From the IMG/VR virus record IMGVR_UViG_2706794665_000014: a stretch of 9,711 bases of DNA, one strand, 5' to 3'. Below are positions 63 to 9,711 of this stretch, one piece after another; positions within the stretch are counted from its first letter, which is position 1; each line of letters starts with the position of its first letter. Origin of the DNA: a virus. Taxonomy: Duplodnaviria > Heunggongvirae > Uroviricota > Caudoviricetes. Position numbers and translations under genes: made by a program. The notes below the pieces were generated by a model, which saw only the letters and a list, made by a program, of their open reading frames with translations, ran no database searches and was not told the DNA's origin.

Positions 63-224
63 ACGGTTGAAATGTATGCCGCTACTTACGGGTCCTGTAA
101 TCCTCTGAATAAACCAGAGGGAAAAGATGATTTCGACAAAATTTACCGCTTCTTGGAGGACCGCTATATCAAAAGCTTAGAGGACGCAGGGATCAAATCC
201 CCAGTGAAGTCACCATTGTCCTGA
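63..224 (+). pseudogene. Orphan open frame starting at the IS1 junction: possible 3' remnant of a gene disrupted by IS1 (or a 50-codon ORF from ATG 72)
   Basis: Frame is open for 53 codons from base 63 to TGA 222-224 (TVEMYAATYGSCNPLNKPEGKDDFDKIYRFLEDRYIKSLEDAGIKSPVKSPLS). No Shine-Dalgarno before ATG 72. The opposite strand is full of stops here. Not listed in the ORF track. Confidence 0.3.
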
Positions 225-558
225 GAACTTGCAGAACGTCATGATCATAACTTCCATCCAAACCGCGACGGCGAATTGCTTCTCGTATTACCGGAAGCAG
301 TTCGCTGGAAATCTCGGTGCATATTTCACCTGATAATACGCTTGGCTCAAGTGAGAATATTGGTGAACTTACGGTCTTGGTCTCGACAGTTTCAGAGTCA
401 GTGCCAACATTATAAAGCTCAACGAAAGCGGTCTTGATTTTCCGGGCCAGATCTTTTGCTGGCTCGCTTGCAATATCTTTCCCGATTTCTCGCAGCACAG
501 AATGCAATGTATGAGCTGCTGTTTTCTGTACATCAGACGGTAAATCTTTAAATTCCAT
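193..558 (-). CDS. Hypothetical prophage early-leftward protein, about 121 aa
   Basis: ORF 193-570 on minus strand. Preferred start is the internal ATG at 558 (MEFKDLPSD...), preceded by GAGG about 6 nt upstream; the ATG at 570 overlaps the upstream gene's stop (TGATG). No family recognised. Confidence 0.55.
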   Translation of the reverse strand: MEFKDLPSDVQKTAAHTLHSVLREIGKDIASEPAKDLARKIKTAFVELYNVGTDSETVETKTVSSPIFSLEPSVLSGEICTEISSELLPVIREAIRRRGLDGSYDHDVLQVLRTMVTSLGI

Positions 559-569
559 CGTCAGCCTCA

Positions 570-722
570 TCAGTCAGTGTTTCTGGCTAACCAGCAACGC
601 GCGCCAGATTCGGTTTTAAACGTTTTGCTTTTGGTATACGTCATGGCGGTAAACGTTCCATCCTGGTTAGGGAACACGCCGCACACCAGAGATTCGTTGT
701 TGCCAAGATCGATAGTATCCAT
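570..722 (-). CDS. Hypothetical small prophage protein, about 50 aa
   Basis: Minus-strand ORF; ATG at 722 is preceded by AGGGGAAATGAGG with 5-nt spacing. The in-frame extension to 776 has no RBS. Stop overlaps the start of the downstream gene. Confidence 0.45.
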   Translation of the reverse strand: MDTIDLGNNESLVCGVFPNQDGTFTAMTYTKSKTFKTESGARCWLARNTD

Positions 723-903
723 GCTGACCTCATTTCCCCTTAACGCCGGGGTGGCGGAACAAAAAACCTGCTGCATAGTTAAAGATTGAACCCTGCCGTC
801 ATGTTCTTACGCCTCGGGCTGGCTACTTAACCCCTGACCACTGTCTGGTAACTCGAAGTATTGCCCTGCATTCTGTGGGGCGGGGTGGGTTGACGCCTGA
901 AAC

Positions 904-946
904 AATAGCATCATTATTTTTTTTTGATGTAAATAGCATCGCTATT
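904..946. promoter_or_regulatory. Leftward operator-like pair: two copies of the palindrome AATAG-N5-CTATT (O_L-like)
   Basis: 904-918 AATAGCATCATTATT (imperfect) and 932-946 AATAGCATCGCTATT (perfect inverted repeat), 28 bp centre to centre. Same motif as the sites in the repressor/cro intergenic region. Confidence 0.4.
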
Positions 947-961
947 GTTTTTTGTTGGGGC

Positions 962-986
962 AAGAAAAAACCACCCTAAGGTGGTT
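962..986 (-). terminator. Rho-independent terminator at the end of the repressor-antitoxin-toxin operon
   Basis: Stem AACCACC (969-975) / GGTGGTT (980-986) with 4-nt loop. On the minus strand the hairpin is followed by TTTTTCTTG (complement of 961-968). It sits 17 bp past the toxin stop codon (1003-1005). Confidence 0.55.
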
Positions 987-1002
987 CTGTCGGCGGGAAT
1001 AA

Positions 1003-1293
1003 TTAACTGTTTTTGCCTGGATACTGTCTTCGAGAATGCACAATATTTACTACTTCTATGCTTGATGCTGTTACTCGGTAAAGGATGATGTAGTTAGGAT
1101 GAGTTACAATTTCACGAAGACCAAGAACTCGCTCGCTTGGAGGATACAGGTAAGGATGCTCTGTGAGCGGCAAAACGGATGTTTCAATTCGAATTTTCAT
1201 TCTGCGTGCTGCCGCGGGATTTTCTTTAGCTATGTAGGCTACGATCTGGCGCAAATCATCACGAGCAGATGGTAGCCATAAAACGGGTAACAT
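1003..1293 (-). CDS. Type II toxin, ParE/RelE superfamily (96 aa)
   Basis: Size and sequence pattern typical of ParE/RelE toxins (MLPVLWLPSARDDLRQIVAYIAKENPAAARR...GLREIVTHPNYIILYRV...IVHSRRQYP). Start overlaps the upstream antitoxin stop by 1 nt (TAATG); GAGGTG RBS lies inside the antitoxin 3' end. Confidence 0.8.
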   Translation of the reverse strand: MLPVLWLPSARDDLRQIVAYIAKENPAAARRMKIRIETSVLPLTEHPYLYPPSERVLGLREIVTHPNYIILYRVTASSIEVVNIVHSRRQYPGKNS

Positions 1294-1487
1294 TATTCAC
1301 CTCTGTGAGTTGCAGCAGCAATTTGGGCAATAATTTGTTCCATTTCCGCCATTACCTCATCATGCGGAATCGCCGGGCGGGGATCCGCGAGGCTTGCTGC
1401 TACTTTGGCCCGCAGCCATTCGTTGTAACTATTTTCTTGCTCAACTGTCTCAAATTCTGAAACCATTGGGGAAAGGACTGTACTCAT
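1293..1487 (-). CDS. Putative antitoxin (addiction-module antidote-like, 64 aa) paired with the ParE/RelE toxin
   Basis: Small acidic ORF immediately upstream of and overlapping the toxin gene. GAGGAG RBS 9 nt before ATG 1487. Sequence (…NEWLRAKVAASLADPRPAIPHDEVMAEMEQII…) resembles antidote proteins that partner RelE/ParE toxins. Confidence 0.65.
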   Translation of the reverse strand: MSTVLSPMVSEFETVEQENSYNEWLRAKVAASLADPRPAIPHDEVMAEMEQIIAQIAAATHRGE

Positions 1488-1506
1488 TTTACATATCTCC
1501 TCTGAT

Positions 1507-2007
1507 TTAGGCGCGACGGCCTTTTTGTGCAGCTAACCACCGCGCAACCGTACGATCCATTGATTCTTTTTTATCTTTCATCTCCTGAAGCATGTGTTCT
1601 TGATCTTCTTTCGGAAAAGCTCTGAACGTATGGATTAAATCTCGTTCCATCGGCTCTACGGCAAACGGTAGTTCATCCTCTGTTTGTTCTGTGTCTGCTG
1701 GTAATGCGACTATGTTATCTTGCTGTGGTTCTCGACAATACATCCTTGCAATTTGCAGCAAATCTACCATGTCTGGCCTGATTGACTCAGGGGGAACTTT
1801 CAGTAAGCCAGCAAACTTTAGAACAGCCTCAAGGTTTAGTGGGGTTTGACCATTTAGGTAGTGACTTACCGCCCCTTGTGTTGAAAACCCCATAATTTCC
1901 GCCGCACGTTCCTGAGTCAATCCCAACTGAGATTTCTTTGCCATCCAGATTTCTTTCAGTCTTCTGGCGGCGTTGAGGTCGGTGTCTGACAATGATTTTC
2001 TTTTCAT
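1507..2007 (-). CDS. Prophage repressor, XRE-family helix-turn-helix (cI/RacR-like, about 166 aa), no recognisable LexA-like peptidase domain
   Basis: N-terminal HTH (LGLTQERAAEIMGFSTQGAVSHYLNGQTP). Divergent from the cro-like gene. Preferred start ATG 2007 (MKRKSL...); the ORF-track start at 2037 is GTG with no RBS. The C-terminal half is acidic with no Ser/Lys peptidase motif seen. Confidence 0.8.
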   Translation of the reverse strand: MKRKSLSDTDLNAARRLKEIWMAKKSQLGLTQERAAEIMGFSTQGAVSHYLNGQTPLNLEAVLKFAGLLKVPPESIRPDMVDLLQIARMYCREPQQDNIVALPADTEQTEDELPFAVEPMERDLIHTFRAFPKEDQEHMLQEMKDKKESMDRTVARWLAAQKGRRA

Positions 2008-2014
2008 ACATCCA

Positions 2015-2084
2015 ATTCTAATAAGATTGCTAATCACTTTGAAATAGTATCACTATTTACTTTTAAAAATAACAGTGCTATTAA
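2015..2084. promoter_or_regulatory. Divergent promoter/operator region (O_R-like) between the repressor and cro-like genes
   Basis: Three copies of the AATAG-N5-CTATT palindrome at 2020-2034 (weak), 2043-2057 (perfect, AATAGTATCACTATT) and 2068-2082, spaced 23-25 bp. Candidate rightward promoter: -35 TTTACT 2056-2061, -10 TATTAA 2079-2084. Candidate leftward promoter on minus strand: -35 TTCAAA (complement of 2038-2043), -10 TAGAAT (complement of 2015-2020), which places the transcript start at about the repressor ATG. Confidence 0.45.
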
Positions 2085-2118: not shown

Positions 2119-2382
2119 ATGAATCTTGGAGAATATTTGCATCATTTTCATATAACCCAGAGTTCATTTGCTGAGATTGTTGGCGCATCCCAAGGGATGG
2201 TCAGCCACGTTATAACGGGGCGTGCAAAACTTACAGGAGAAAAAATATTACGTTGGTGTGAAGCAACGGGATGGGTGGTGACCCCACATGAGATTGACAG
2301 TAAAACCTACCCCAACCCAACTGACGGCTTGCCTGCTGAGTTTCAGGCTAACACACAACCATCGGCGGGGGTTGATTCATGA
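2119..2382 (+). CDS. Cro-like / YdaS-family HTH regulator (87 aa from ATG 2119)
   Basis: Divergent from the repressor; HTH-like segment QSSFAEIVGASQGMVSHVITGRAKLTGEKILRW. An alternative upstream start at 2092 is in frame. Stop overlaps the next gene's start (ATGA at 2379-2382). Confidence 0.7.
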   Translation: MNLGEYLHHFHITQSSFAEIVGASQGMVSHVITGRAKLTGEKILRWCEATGWVVTPHEIDSKTYPNPTDGLPAEFQANTQPSAGVDS

Positions 2383-2804
2383 AAATCAAGCATGAACACA
2401 TCCGCATGGCGATGAAAGCCTGGGCGCATCCGGACGGTGAAAAAGTTCCGGCAGCTGAAATAACCAGGGTTTATTTCGAACTGGGAATGACGTTTCCGGT
2501 TCTGCATAACGACAGCAAGCACAACACGCTTTATCTCAACACCCAAAAGATTTTCCGTTGGCTGGATAAAGACACCCCTGACGCTGTTGAAAAAATTCAG
2601 GCGTTGTTACCTGCGATCGAAAGGGCAATGCCACCTCCGCTGGTGGCTCGAATGCGCAGCCACAGTTCAGCTTATTTTCGGGAACTGGTGGAGACGCATG
2701 AACGACTGGTGAGAGACGCTGATGATTTTGTCGCAGTGGCAATCGCCGGTTTCAATCAGATGAACCGTGGTGGCCCGGCAGGAAATGCTGTGGCAGTACA
2801 TTGA
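2379..2804 (+). CDS. YdaT-like protein (CII-like regulator family), 141 aa
   Basis: Translationally coupled to the cro-like gene. Size and position match the ydaS-ydaT arrangement of Rac-type prophages. Assigned from gene order and length; weak sequence recollection. Confidence 0.6.
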   Translation: MKIKHEHIRMAMKAWAHPDGEKVPAAEITRVYFELGMTFPVLHNDSKHNTLYLNTQKIFRWLDKDTPDAVEKIQALLPAIERAMPPPLVARMRSHSSAYFRELVETHERLVRDADDFVAVAIAGFNQMNRGGPAGNAVAVH

Positions 2805-4696: not shown

Positions 4697-4717
4697 TTTT
4701 TGTTGGAGGATGTTTTA

Positions 4718-6539: not shown

Positions 6540-8372
6540 ATGGCCCGCATGTTTGATACATTAGGATTTTACATTATGAATGTGCAACATTTTGATTTTT
6601 TTACAGATAATGAGTTTTCTAATCTGGAAAGATATCAAACTTGTAAAGCCATGGCCAAAGGTTATGCGGGCAATTACAAAACCGGGCAGTCAAGGTTGAT
6701 GCATGCCCGCTCATACTGCTTCAGCATCGTAGCTGCATATTGGGATACCCTTGCAAAAAAGCAAAAAAGCAGCATTAAAATGAGGGCAGTACCGCACACT
6801 GTTTACATAGAAGACATTCCATGTGATGCACGCGAGCTCGCTGAACGAACAGGTGAGCTTATTGCTCAATTTCCGGCGGAGGACGCTGGATATCTGATTG
6901 GGTCAATTTATACGGTAATGCTGCCATCCGCTTACCGTTCGGAATTGGGGGCTTACTATACCCCCCCACCTTTGGTAGCGCGTCTCTTGGACCTGGCTGA
7001 AAAGTCTGGTGTTGATTTTTCTCATGCATCGGTTATTGATCCTGCGTGTGGTGGCGGTGCATTTTTGGCACCAGTAGCCATTCGAATGTTAAAAAAAGAC
7101 AAGGGGTCTTCCCCTGAATGGATGTTGAGGAGAATCAGTCGTCGTTTAAAGGGGATAGAGATCGATCCATTTGCGGCTTGGATGAGTTTGGTATTGCTCG
7201 AATCTGTACTAATGCCACTATGTGTAAAGGTAAAACGTAGATTGCCTGAAGATACAATTATTGTTGCTGATGCGCTTCAGCAAGATAAATTTTCTGGTTA
7301 TGATCTTGTGGTAGGGAATCCGCCTTACGGACGTGTCACTCTCGATATTAAAACGAGAGAAAAATATTCTCGTTCGTTATTTGGTCATGCAAATCTATAT
7401 GGATTGTTCACCGACTTAGCTGTTCGCATGGTTAAAGAGAAAACAGGAGTTATTGCATTTCTTACGCCAACTTCTTTTCTTGGTGGGCAGTATTTCACCG
7501 CGCTGCGAACCCTTTTGACCGAAAAAACTACTCCGTATGCCCTTGATTTCGTCACTGACAGGGATGGGGTCTTTGACGATGTTCTCCAGGAAACAATGTT
7601 GACAGCATTCAAGGCGGGAGAACATAAAGTTCGGGCCCAGGTATCCTCACTTGTCCCTAAGGGGTTGAACAAAGCAAAAATTGAGAAAATAGGTAATGTT
7701 GATATAGAAAAAGGTGGAGCAACGTGGCTTTTGCCACGCGTTAAAGATGATGCCTGTTTTCTTAATGTATTAAAACAGATGTCTACGCGTTTAGCTGATC
7801 TGGGATACTCAGTCTCTACAGGTCAGTTAGTCTGGAATCGATTTAAGTCGCAGTTGCGTACGACGAAAGGAAAAAATAGCTACCCATTAGTCTGGGCGGA
7901 ATCAATAACTTCAGCTGGTTTTCGTTTTAGTGCAGACAGAAAAAATCATGTTCCCTATATCGATATAACCCCACAACAGGGTTTCCTTGTGACAAAATCT
8001 GAATGTGTGCTTGTTCAGCGGACAACATCGAAGGAACAGGACAGAAGGATTTTAGCGGCAATTTTACCTCAGGGATTTATAGATGAAACTGGTGGCGTAG
8101 TAGTTGAAAACCATATTAATATTGTATATTCAAACGGATTGTTCTCTGCGGTTCGCCCTGATGTTATTGATATGCTACTTAATTCGCATGTTGTCGATCG
8201 GGCGTTCAGGTGTATAAGCGGAAGTGTTGCTGTTTCGGCCTATGAATTGAATTCAATCCCGTTGCCTTCTCTGGAGCAGGTGATGGAGATTCAATCGTTA
8301 ATTGATGCTGGCGTCCACAGACGGATTATTGAGAGAACTATCGCTGGTTTCTATGGAGTGATGATTGCATGA
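6540..8372 (+). CDS. N6-adenine DNA methyltransferase, gamma class (Eco57I/TaqI-like), 610 aa
   Basis: Motif X GAYYTPPPLVARLL (about 6948-6989), motif I VIDPACGGGAFL (about 7032-7067), motif IV VVGNPPYG (NPPY at 7317-7328), in the order X-I-IV. Alternative start ATG 6576 with AGGA RBS. AT-richer than the upstream phage genes. Confidence 0.85.
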   Translation: MARMFDTLGFYIMNVQHFDFFTDNEFSNLERYQTCKAMAKGYAGNYKTGQSRLMHARSYCFSIVAAYWDTLAKKQKSSIKMRAVPHTVYIEDIPCDARELAERTGELIAQFPAEDAGYLIGSIYTVMLPSAYRSELGAYYTPPPLVARLLDLAEKSGVDFSHASVIDPACGGGAFLAPVAIRMLKKDKGSSPEWMLRRISRRLKGIEIDPFAAWMSLVLLESVLMPLCVKVKRRLPEDTIIVADALQQDKFSGYDLVVGNPPYGRVTLDIKTREKYSRSLFGHANLYGLFTDLAVRMVKEKTGVIAFLTPTSFLGGQYFTALRTLLTEKTTPYALDFVTDRDGVFDDVLQETMLTAFKAGEHKVRAQVSSLVPKGLNKAKIEKIGNVDIEKGGATWLLPRVKDDACFLNVLKQMSTRLADLGYSVSTGQLVWNRFKSQLRTTKGKNSYPLVWAESITSAGFRFSADRKNHVPYIDITPQQGFLVTKSECVLVQRTTSKEQDRRILAAILPQGFIDETGGVVVENHINIVYSNGLFSAVRPDVIDMLLNSHVVDRAFRCISGSVAVSAYELNSIPLPSLEQVMEIQSLIDAGVHRRIIERTIAGFYGVMIA

Positions 8373-9469
8373 ATCTGCCTGTTGTTCCCCCATTGAATGT
8401 TATCCGGGAAAGATTACAATTAATTTTCCCTGAAGGGACTGAGAATCGTGGATATTTAATTCGGGAAATAGCTGCAAAAACAATTTTTGTCATGTTTTAT
8501 GCTGGTGCGGTTGAGGGGCTGGGGCGATGGATAAGGCCCAGCCAGGTTGTAAGTATGGGAGATTCGCAGGCTGCTCTTACTGATGATGCGTCCAGAGAAA
8601 GCTGGGTAAAGATGACTTTCTCTAAACAAAAGATAAGGCCTGCTGATGCATGGTATGCGGAAAATACGCGTGAGCCAATACGTGATGAAACTATAAAAAA
8701 TGGCCTAATACCTTGCAATGCAATTGTTGAGCGTAAAGGTATACCCACCACATCCTCTCGTCCTCGTTACAGTTTGAATCGCTCTTTTGCAGCACTCTTT
8801 GATGCCGGGCTTGAAGGAGATTCGCTGCTGAGTGCAATAAGTTCCTGGCAAGAAAATCATTTGAACAAAGCCGCTCTTGCTAGNNNNNNNNNNNNNNNNN
8901 NNNNNNNNNNNNNNNNNNNNNNNNNNNNNNNNNNNNNNNNNNNNNNNNNNNNNNNNNNNNNNNNNNNNNNNNNNNNNNNNNNNNNNNNNNNNNNNNNNNN
9001 NNNNNNNNNNNNNNNNNNNNNNNNNNNNNNNNNNNNNNNNNNNNNNNNNNNNNNNNNNNNNNNNNNNNNNNNNNNNNNNNNNNNNNNNNNNNNNNNNNNN
9101 NNNNNNNNNNNNNNNNNNNNNNNNNNNNNNNNNNNNNNNNNNNNNNNNNNNNNNCCAGATATTATTTTGATTGATTTGGGAGAGGACCGAACGGGTTCGG
9201 ACATGCTTGTAGTTTTCACTGAAGTAGTTGCGACAGATGGGCCTATAAACAGGGAACGAAAAGTTACTCTCACTCATTTGGCTATTGACGCTGGGTTCAG
9301 CGAGAAAAATCTTGCATTCCTTACGGCATTTATGGACAGAAGTGCTCTGCCTTTTAAAAAGGCAATACCAGAATTGGCGTGGGGATCTTATGCATGGTTT
9401 GCTTCTGAACCGGAGCACTTAATTGATCTTCGGGATGGTTATCCGGTAAAGATCAGCCAGAGAAAATGA
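8369..9469 (+). CDS. Methyltransferase-coupled partner protein, 366 aa; putative restriction endonuclease (possibly BsuBI/PstI-like), family not verified
   Basis: ATG 8369 overlaps the MTase stop (ATGA) with GGAG about 10 nt upstream, so operon coupling is clear. No catalytic motif recognised by eye; about 90 central codons are masked (8884-9154). Function inferred from context. Confidence 0.6.
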   Translation: MNLPVVPPLNVIRERLQLIFPEGTENRGYLIREIAAKTIFVMFYAGAVEGLGRWIRPSQVVSMGDSQAALTDDASRESWVKMTFSKQKIRPADAWYAENTREPIRDETIKNGLIPCNAIVERKGIPTTSSRPRYSLNRSFAALFDAGLEGDSLLSAISSWQENHLNKAALAXXXXXXXXXXXXXXXXXXXXXXXXXXXXXXXXXXXXXXXXXXXXXXXXXXXXXXXXXXXXXXXXXXXXXXXXXXXXXXXXXXXXXXXXXXXPDIILIDLGEDRTGSDMLVVFTEVVATDGPINRERKVTLTHLAIDAGFSEKNLAFLTAFMDRSALPFKKAIPELAWGSYAWFASEPEHLIDLRDGYPVKISQRK

Positions 9470-9621: not shown

Positions 9622-9711
9622 GGTGATGCTGCCAACTTACTGATTTAGTGTATGATGGTGTTTTTGAGGTGCTCCAGTGGCTTCTGTTTCTATCAGCTGT
9701 CCCTCCTGTTC
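9622..9711 (+). mobile_element. IS1 insertion sequence, 5'-terminal 90 bp (left inverted repeat and start of insA); the element continues past the window end
   Basis: GGTGATGCTGCCAACTTACTGAT at 9622-9644 is the IS1 terminal repeat, followed by the canonical IS1 leader and the insA start. Same orientation as the IS1 end at 1-60. Confidence 0.88.
9677..9711 (+). CDS. insA: IS1 InsA, N-terminal codons (3'-partial)
   Basis: GTG 9677 then GCT TCT GTT TCT ATC AGC TGT CCC TCC TGT TC, giving (M)ASVSISCPSC, the InsA N-terminus. Confidence 0.7.
   Translation, partial: MASVSISCPSC

Follow-up and report, generated by a model that had tools for sequence, protein, structure and literature searches.

Five AATAG-type dyads as predicted right and left operators of a lambdoid prophage immunity switch

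The window analysed here is a 9,711-nucleotide stretch of tailed-virus DNA (IMG/VR record IMGVR_UViG_2706794665_000014), for which an earlier note had described five copies of a 15-base-pair (bp) palindrome, AATAG-N5-CTATT, in the two control regions flanking a repressor operon. These sites very probably serve as operators in the immunity switch of a lambdoid prophage remnant (Shigella sonnei type), three of them forming the right operator (O_R1 to O_R3) and two the left operator (O_L1 and O_L2). The switch belongs to a well-understood type, within which the DNA specificity is an uncharacterised one and binding is predicted. Promoters, binding, order of occupancy, activation of the repressor promoter (PRM) and looping are predictions from the sequence.

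Sequence, symmetry and distribution of the dyads

All five dyads were read exactly at the positions given in the earlier note. The two perfect inverted repeats mentioned there are O_L2 and O_R2, both with arms of 6 bp around a centre of 3 bp. The trio said to lie 23 to 25 bp apart between the repressor gene and a cro-like gene has start-to-start distances of 23 and 25 bp, and the left pair is 28 bp apart. The sites are as follows (mismatches to AATAG-N5-CTATT; scores from the weight matrix described below):

904–918: O_L1, AATAGCATCATTATT, one mismatch, score 18.8
932–946: O_L2, AATAGCATCGCTATT, no mismatch, score 20.3
2020–2034: O_R3, AATAAGATTGCTAAT (ATTAGCAATCTTATT on the repressor strand), two mismatches, score 10.7, the weakest operator
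2043–2057: O_R2, AATAGTATCACTATT, no mismatch
2068–2082: O_R1, AATAACAGTGCTATT, one mismatch, score 20.9, the highest in the window

The pattern search with up to three mismatches that the note had proposed was run, like all scans of the window, on the readable letters, excluding four N-masked stretches (1,081 bp altogether). Exact matches are enriched (two observed, 0.01 expected; two or more in none of 200 shuffled sequences). With up to two mismatches, seven matches were observed and 3.5 expected, and the three-mismatch level (35 observed, 32.6 expected) is uninformative. The additional matches with up to two mismatches, at 4717 and 6250, lie inside coding sequence; the latter scores 7.3 with the matrix, the former is outside the top twelve, and both were taken as chance. 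The core A[A/T]TA-N7-TA[A/T]T, which is invariant across loci, has five matches in the window, and these are precisely the five sites. Nine scattered matches to this core were counted in the 100-kb surroundings of the homologous prophage of E. coli.

A similar density of the motif elsewhere, which the note had named as a refutation, was not seen in the approximately 150 kb scanned. In the flanks of the homologous prophage of E. coli RMDEC465 (100 kb), there is no exact AATAG-N5-CTATT and there are three isolated matches with one mismatch, and the AATAG dyad was not found in 50 kb of the O157 Sakai prophage Sp4.

The weight matrix was trained exclusively on 15 sites from three distant loci of 5–7 kb (Salmonella diarizonae and two metagenome lineages in which the repressor has 244–255 amino acids (aa); the repressors of all three are 49–62% identical overall to that of the window), so that no site of the window was part of the training set. 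It ranks the five sites of the window first to fifth (20.9, 20.3, 18.8, 17.6 and 10.7); the sixth match scores 7.3, and the top score in shuffled sequence averages 9.0 (standard deviation 2.7). The fullest consensus palindrome is AATAGCA-N-TGCTATT, of which only A[A/T]TA...TA[A/T]T is invariant in the cross-locus matrix, the G and C of AATAG and CTATT being conserved weakly across loci.

Operator layout, predicted promoters and the two candidate binding proteins

The three right sites (2020–2082) lie between the divergent start codons of the repressor gene (ATG at 2007, minus strand) and the cro-like gene (ATG at 2119, plus strand). The two left sites (904–946) are found directly past the terminator of the repressor operon and upstream of a ydfA-like operon, and this two-site arrangement is repeated in six other loci. 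Consensus-like hexamers, conserved across loci, overlap the sites. The features of this region are:

1507–2007, minus strand: immunity repressor gene (166 aa; residues 1–92 a lambda-CI-like N-terminal domain (NTD), 93–118 a disordered linker, 119–165 a PaaR-type hairpin)
2119–2382, plus strand: gene of the cro-like helix-turn-helix (HTH) protein (87 aa; phrog_35; sub-threshold match to HTH_3)
2056–2084, plus strand: predicted PR (-35 TTTACT at 2056–2061, 17-bp spacer, TG at 2076–2077, -10 TATTAA at 2079–2084)
2015–2043, minus strand: predicted PRM from a promoter scan (-35 TTCAAA at 2043 to 2038, 17-bp spacer, -10 TAGAAT at 2020 to 2015)
902–933, minus strand: predicted PL (-35 TTTACA at 933 to 928, -10 TGcTATTGT at 910 to 902, 20-bp spacer)
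962–988, minus strand: intrinsic terminator at the end of the operon of repressor, paaA and parE (AACCACC-UUAG-GGUGGUU and a U run; -15.1 kcal/mol, z = -2.97)

The predicted PR reads into the cro-like and ydaT-like genes, and its architecture (TTGAC[T/C/A] or TTTACT, 17 bp, TATTAA) recurs in four related loci (L002, L003, L005 and L007). O_R1, whose half-sites are invariant in an alignment of six loci, spans the spacer of this predicted promoter together with the extended TG and reaches four bases into the -10. The predicted PR -35 shares its first two bases with O_R2, which also abuts the predicted PRM -35 and has its centre at about -43 relative to the repressor ATG, the position from which lambda CI activates PRM. 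O_R3 lies within the spacer of the predicted PRM and overlaps its -10 by one base; at this position, ATTAG...(C/T)TATT is conserved in all six aligned loci. A leaderless repressor mRNA is suggested, since the ATG follows the predicted PRM -10 after only 7 nucleotides (nt) and this gap is conserved (6–7 nt in all six aligned loci).

On the left side, the final two minus-strand bases of O_L2 begin the predicted PL -35, and O_L1 overlaps the extended TG and the -10 on the minus strand. The PL spacer has 17 bp in L001 and L002, and L003, L005 and L007 have TTGAC(T/C/A) with 16–18 bp. A plus-strand candidate from the promoter scan (TTGACG-16-CATTAT, 890–917) is unconserved in L002 and farther loci and was taken as chance. 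Overall, the layout likened in the note to O_L and O_R of lambdoid phages is supported by arrangement, overlap with predicted promoters, symmetry, spacing, half-site conservation and HTH co-occurrence, with two left operators, not three.

A run of nine T on the plus strand (nine A on the minus strand) is located between O_L1 and O_L2 (917–925). Among E. coli and S. sonnei loci that are otherwise near-identical, its length is six in L001, seven in L055, eight in L009, L010 and L056 to L060, and nine in the window, L054 and L061, and it fixes the PL spacer at 17–20 bp and the O_L1–O_L2 spacing at 25–28 bp; because the window has nine bases here, its spacer is 20 bp long and its left pair lies 28 bp apart. 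The variation may reflect real slippage, decay of PL or, in part, assembly error. In the assembly of L056, an additional T is present in O_R and several replication-gene calls are fragmented. That the run serves as a slippage-prone switch, rendering the toxin–antitoxin (TA)-bearing switch remnant phase-variable rather than simply decaying, is an unlikely proposal. If it were true, a change in run length would alter at once the distance between the PL hexamers (17 to 20 bp) and the phasing of the left operators on the helix, and the kil/dicB-type left operon and any O_L–O_R cooperation mediated by the chimeric repressor would be toggled on and off within a population.

The repressor has Pfam matches to HTH_3 and HTH_31 only, and the same search did not find an S24 peptidase domain for RecA-stimulated autocleavage. 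Its N-terminal part is related to the lambda repressor structure 1lmb (phmmer, E = 2.9e-9 over residues 2–81), its AlphaFold model has five helices with a pLDDT (per-residue model confidence) of approximately 81–93 over residues 11–90, and the ten best Foldseek matches to the model are all lambda NTDs (TM scores 0.81–0.93). Residues 119–165 form a two-helix hairpin in the model. According to the alignment, this C-terminal hairpin is shared with PaaR-like regulators of 132–133 aa, whose HTH is 434/P22-like, and the NTD of the repressor aligns with none of them. The PaaR C-terminal region of the repressor reads ..AFPEEDQ..ARWLAAQKGRRA, that of PaaR1 from Sp4 ..AFPEEDQEKML..IARWLAAQKSRRA. The repressor is a chimera of a lambda-CI-homologous NTD and a PaaR-type tail, not a classical CI. 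In relatives of 240–255 aa (P0013 to P0023; loci L005 to L008), a lambda-like HTH, a 434/P22-like HTH and a PaaR-type C-terminus are arranged in tandem, and the loci of these double-HTH proteins retain AATAG-type O_R and O_L sites.

The cro-like protein falls short of the YdaS_toxin model in the Pfam search. Its recognition helix (SQGMVSHVITG) is near-identical to that of the repressor (TQGAVSHYLNG), and QGMVSHV is invariant in the five motif-bearing loci compared. Since QGAVSHY and QGMVSHV are closely alike, both proteins are binding candidates, and most likely they share the sites.

Under the operator reading, dimers of the 166-aa repressor would bind each 15-bp dyad through the lambda-CI-like HTH, which would read the AATA and TATT blocks one helical turn apart. 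Occupancy of O_R1 and O_R2 would switch off PR and with it the cro-like and ydaT genes, and occupancy of O_L1 and O_L2 would switch off PL and the ydfA/kil-type left operon. Repressor on O_R2 (about -43) would probably stimulate the weak, leaderless PRM, from which the repressor, paaA and parE would be transcribed, and O_R3, a weak site located over the spacer and -10 of PRM, would allow autorepression or shut-off by Cro. The cro-like protein, with its near-identical recognition helix, would most likely be a competitor at these sites. Dimerisation and higher-order contacts between adjacent sites are probably provided by the PaaR-type C-terminal helices, which may also form contacts across the 1.1 kb that separate O_L from O_R.

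Conservation of the sites and weighing of the alternatives

All five sites are kept in the close relatives L001 (96% identical) and L002 (82%), in which the central bases differ; the centre of O_R2, for example, varies between TATCA, CATCG and CTATG among the three loci. Half-sites are thus conserved around a free centre in loci that are 82–96% identical. In the three distant loci, the intergenic DNA aligns with the window around the sites only, and all matches with at most one mismatch fall into either a three-site O_R cluster or a two-site O_L cluster. The former is located just upstream of the repressor gene with spacings of 25 and 23–24 bp, the latter beyond the repressor operon.

Three loci of similar layout with another HTH (L013, L015 and Sakai Sp4) contain no match to AATAG-N5-CTATT with at most one mismatch and have different repeats at the equivalent positions, which are of the ACTGT/ACAGT type in Sp4. 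That the sites are chance AT-rich palindromes or elements of PR and PL (-35 and -10 hexamers, UP-like tracts) with no dedicated binder is very unlikely. The regions are indeed AT-rich, the outer TATT of two sites is part of -10 hexamers, and the pattern is at chance level with three mismatches. However, both half-sites are conserved, including the halves outside any hexamer, with the centre free; the enrichment is large for exact matches, matrix, core and the survey described below; and these heteroimmune loci have equivalent promoters and lack the motif.

The boundaries of DNA homology indicate with which genes the motif is associated. L013 matches the window in BLAST at 580–1646 and 2268–2880, not at 1647–2267, so that homology covers ydfA, parE, paaA, the repressor C-terminus and ydaT. 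L003, L005 and L007 match only at approximately 1750–2400 (repressor NTD, O_R and cro), yet carry the motif. Given these match boundaries, the motif travels with the block of repressor NTD, O_R and cro; judged from the same alignments, it does not travel with the TA genes, YdaT or the C-terminal domain of the repressor.

Sharp mosaic boundaries were observed at 1647–2267 against L013, L015 and Sp4, the repressor NTD, O_R and the 5' part of cro being swapped as one block. A short O_L/PL segment is swapped separately between conserved flanks, namely the terminator and ..CCCACCCCGCCCCACAGAA... The slot between the repressor gene and O_L holds variable cargo, while the flanking switch is conserved:

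Window, 1003–1487: PaaA/ParE
L003, 3612–4339: HigB/HigA
L005, 3787–5360: HipA_2 and DUF3037
L007: empty slot

The genes of the cargo and of YdaT bear on a further explanation. In the window they are represented by:

1293–1487, minus strand: PaaA-type antitoxin gene, cotranscribed with the repressor gene (PF21217, 3e-23; PaaA2 structure 3zbe, 1.4e-23)
1003–1293, minus strand: ParE-type toxin gene (PF05016, 1.8e-17; ParE2 structure 5cw7, 6.7e-37)
2379–2804, plus strand: gene of the YdaT family, a CII analogue (PF06254, 5e-9; phrog_163, CII-like activator, 3e-40)
2372–2389: YdaT box, TTGATTCATGAAAATCAA, extending over the stop codon of the cro-like gene and the ATG of ydaT (no mismatch to TTGATT-N6-AATCAA)

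The paaA and parE genes lie directly downstream of the repressor gene in the same orientation. Classical type II TA operons autoregulate at palindromes, and YdaT, encoded next door, is a DNA-binding tetramer; the dyads might thus be targets of PaaA-ParE autoregulation or YdaT (CII-like) sites. This is extremely unlikely, as L013 and Sp4 have the paaA, parE and ydaT families but no AATAG dyads, and the loci with HigBA (L003), a HipA-like protein (L005) or no cargo (L007) all retain them. PaaA2 has no DNA-binding domain (PMC8630535), and YdaT has its own perfect box, which is a separate regulatory site outside the AATAG family and differs by 1 nt from the YdaT box of the Rac prophage.

The association was also found in a survey of one genome per species, which comprised 35 loci with this repressor NTD. 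In 16 of them the recognition helix is [T/S]QGAVS[H/Q]YLN, and 11 of the 16 have a match with at most one mismatch in the 160 bp upstream, in most cases at -50. Upstream, matches occur at 4.8 per kb, in the remainder of these loci at 0.066 per kb (p = 3e-20), and a second cluster lies 0.4–1.4 kb downstream (0.9 per kb). In relatives from other genera, the site is located at -50 or -51 from the repressor start, comparable to O_R2 of the window; examples were found in Citrobacter, Providencia, Proteus, Arsenophonus, Methylobacter and Stenotrophomonas. Many such sites are also present in a Psychrobacter locus, whose helix is the variant TQGAVGHYLN, and half-sites of the ..CGAAT or ..CGATT type accompany the variants TQATVS and TQASIS.

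Several observations speak against the assignment of the five sites as operators. Of the 16 loci that share the helix motif, five have no match with at most one mismatch upstream. L042 (Pseudohongiella), with the helix SQGAVSHYLNG, has lambda-like ATTACCGCCAGTAAT dyads at -73 to -13 from the repressor start. O_R3 is marginal on score, 0.25 such matches being expected per window, but it is supported by the presence of a third site at this position in every relative. The genomic background scanned beyond the loci amounts to approximately 150 kb. Repression of PL may be moot in the window, because the predicted spacer has 20 bp and O_L1 and O_L2 are 28 rather than 25 bp apart. Finally, the motif co-varies equally with the repressor and the cro-like protein, so that the comparison cannot separate the two. 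The recognition helix alone was considered as specificity determinant, which works in part and is contradicted by L042, sharing the QGAVSHYLNG core; since this locus has lambda-like sites, the helix motif is not the sole determinant.

The equal co-variation leads to the reading that only the cro-like protein uses the sites as operators, with the repressor acting elsewhere or via other sequences in these regions. The cro-like HTH is conserved as well as the repressor HTH across the motif-bearing loci, and the mosaic block carrying the motif includes cro. This reading is nonetheless improbable: in lambda and in the E. coli prophage CP-933P both proteins use one operator set, the two recognition helices are nearly identical, the O_L/PL sites and the lambda-like geometry of O_R2 and PRM fit a repressor, and the survey, although anchored on the repressor domain, still recovers the motif at -50.

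Prophage setting and comparison with known systems

The window is a fragment, approximately 9.56 kb long, of a decaying prophage between two IS1 ends. Positions 1–61 and 9622–9711 are IS1 termini, 100% identical to IS1A of E. coli K-12; both have the same orientation, and IS1 truncates the leftward operon after two genes. The draft S. sonnei contigs L009 and L061 stop near the left IS1 junction. Besides the genes given above, the following were found:

193–722, minus strand: start of the PL operon (ydfA-like DUF1391 gene at 570–722 and a gene for 125 aa at 193–570)
6540–9469: gene of a 610-aa N6-methyltransferase/Eco57I-type protein, followed by a gene for 366 aa just before the second IS1

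The Pfam labels of the latter two genes were taken from the homologous contig L009, and the genes may represent restriction-modification or defence cargo. Conservation in L001 and L002 extends to the terminator located between parE and O_L2 (962–988). The repressor has a 100% identical counterpart in S. sonnei, and its gene is present in approximately 6,000 blocks of the assembly index. At the DNA level, the best match in a complete E. coli genome shows 96.7% identity, and there is a large group with approximately 82%. The immunity region was not found by DNA in 50,697 phage records, the sole match being phage Evi (76%) in the parE/paaA part.

The analysis provides a testable operator sequence and a map of predicted promoters for an immunity type which S. 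sonnei commonly carries and which also occurs in E. coli prophages. It extends the lambda-CI NTD family to an (A/T)ATAGC-type half-site found from enterobacteria to Psychrobacter and Stenotrophomonas, which helps to predict superinfection immunity groups as well as cross-talk among prophages residing in one host. Non-cleavable repressors of the PaaR type are modular: the same C-terminal oligomerisation piece and TA cargo are combined with two or more DNA-binding domains that are unrelated to each other and have operators of their own. None of this changes the concept of how such switches work.

The exact operator strings of the window had no match in the literature searched, and a literature search for 'PaaR1' returned only papers on type VI secretion. 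The closest studied system is CP-933P (Sakai Sp12) of E. coli O157:H7 with PaaR2, YdaS and YdaT as well as PaaA2-ParE2 (Jurenas et al. 2021, PMC8630535; Prolic-Kalinsek et al. 2023, PMC9986795). Its O_R was footprinted with PaaR2 and YdaS, both of which repress a PL933P reporter bearing predicted O_L-type operators; PaaR2 is octameric, lacks a peptidase domain and at low levels activates PRM; the paaR2 mRNA, like that of lambda cI, is leaderless; and YdaT acts like CII (PMC8630535). The footprinted OM of CP-933P has the consensus TTGATT-N6-AATCAA (PMC9986795).

The window shares with CP-933P the order PL/O_L, parE, paaA, repressor, PRM/O_R/PR, cro-like gene and ydaT, the PaaA and ParE homologues, and a repressor that lacks an S24 domain and is probably translated from a leaderless mRNA. 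The C-terminal motifs encoded by the paaR2 primers (AFPEDEQ, ARWIAA and QKCRRA) are present in the repressor, the start of ydaT is identical to the primer sequences, and the YdaT box is a perfect match to the OM consensus. PaaR2 was absent from the PDB and from the collected homologues, among which no protein starting with MQKKE was recovered; the link to PaaR2 therefore rests on the primer-encoded peptides and on PaaR1 of Sp4. The window repressor was also considered as an orthologue of PaaR1 from CP-933M/Sp4, which was ruled out, since PaaR1 has 133 aa and another type of HTH.

The differences from CP-933P concern DNA recognition. The operators of CP-933P are unrelated in sequence, being 18-bp inverted repeats with the consensus GTTTAGTAA, four of them at O_R, in contrast to three 15-bp AATAGCA-N-TGCTATT sites in the window. 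The DNA-binding domain of the window repressor is lambda-CI-like, whereas that of PaaR-like proteins, including PaaR1 of Sp4, is 434/P22-like. On the left side, three operators are predicted in CP-933P and two in the window.

In the Rac prophage of E. coli K-12, three footprinted dyads are located between the gene of the non-cleavable repressor RacR, described with two HTH domains, and ydaS-ydaT (PMC9638921, PMC11879457). Its half-site, (T/A)TAGGC-n3-GCCTA(T/A), resembles (A)ATAGC-n3-GCTAT(T) of the window, and a YdaT box is likewise found at the ydaT start. Unlike in the window, the TAG cores of Rac are 2 bp wider apart, O3 overlaps the racR start codon and there is no TA cargo. Identity of the window sites with the RacR operator dyad was rejected on the spacing of the TAG cores, which are 2 bp closer in the window.

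The best phage-protein matches to the repressor NTD are 52–57% identical. The CI protein of the Stx2 phage Lyz12581Vzw (Oslovirus) has a 52% identical NTD with the helix TQGAVSQLLN, and its O_R contains the predicted operator AATAGTCTAGCTATT; it is annotated as LexA-family in RefSeq, an annotation which would make it cleavable, unlike the window repressor. The 'DicA' protein of phage Rac-SA53 belongs to the same NTD family (helix SQGTVSQYLN), with the predicted operators ATTAGCCTCACTAAT and AATAGTCAGACTATC in its O_R. No report of a study of the operators of either protein was found.

Compared with lambda, the repressor NTD is homologous (34–40% identity, TM scores 0.81–0.93), and the tripartite O_R of the window resembles that of lambda, in which the centres are spaced by 23–25 bp. 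With respect to the predicted promoters, the positions of O_R1 and O_R2 over PR, of O_R2 beside the PRM -35 at about -43 and of O_R3 over PRM are those of lambda. A leaderless repressor mRNA, suggested here, is another common trait, and in both systems a second set of operators is found at PL past a cargo slot, occupied by rexAB in lambda and by paaA-parE in the window. The window differs in having 15-bp AATAG-type sites instead of 17-bp TATCACCGC-type operators, a helical hairpin of approximately 47 residues in place of the RecA-cleavable C-terminal domain, two O_L sites, YdaT instead of CII and no evident N gene.

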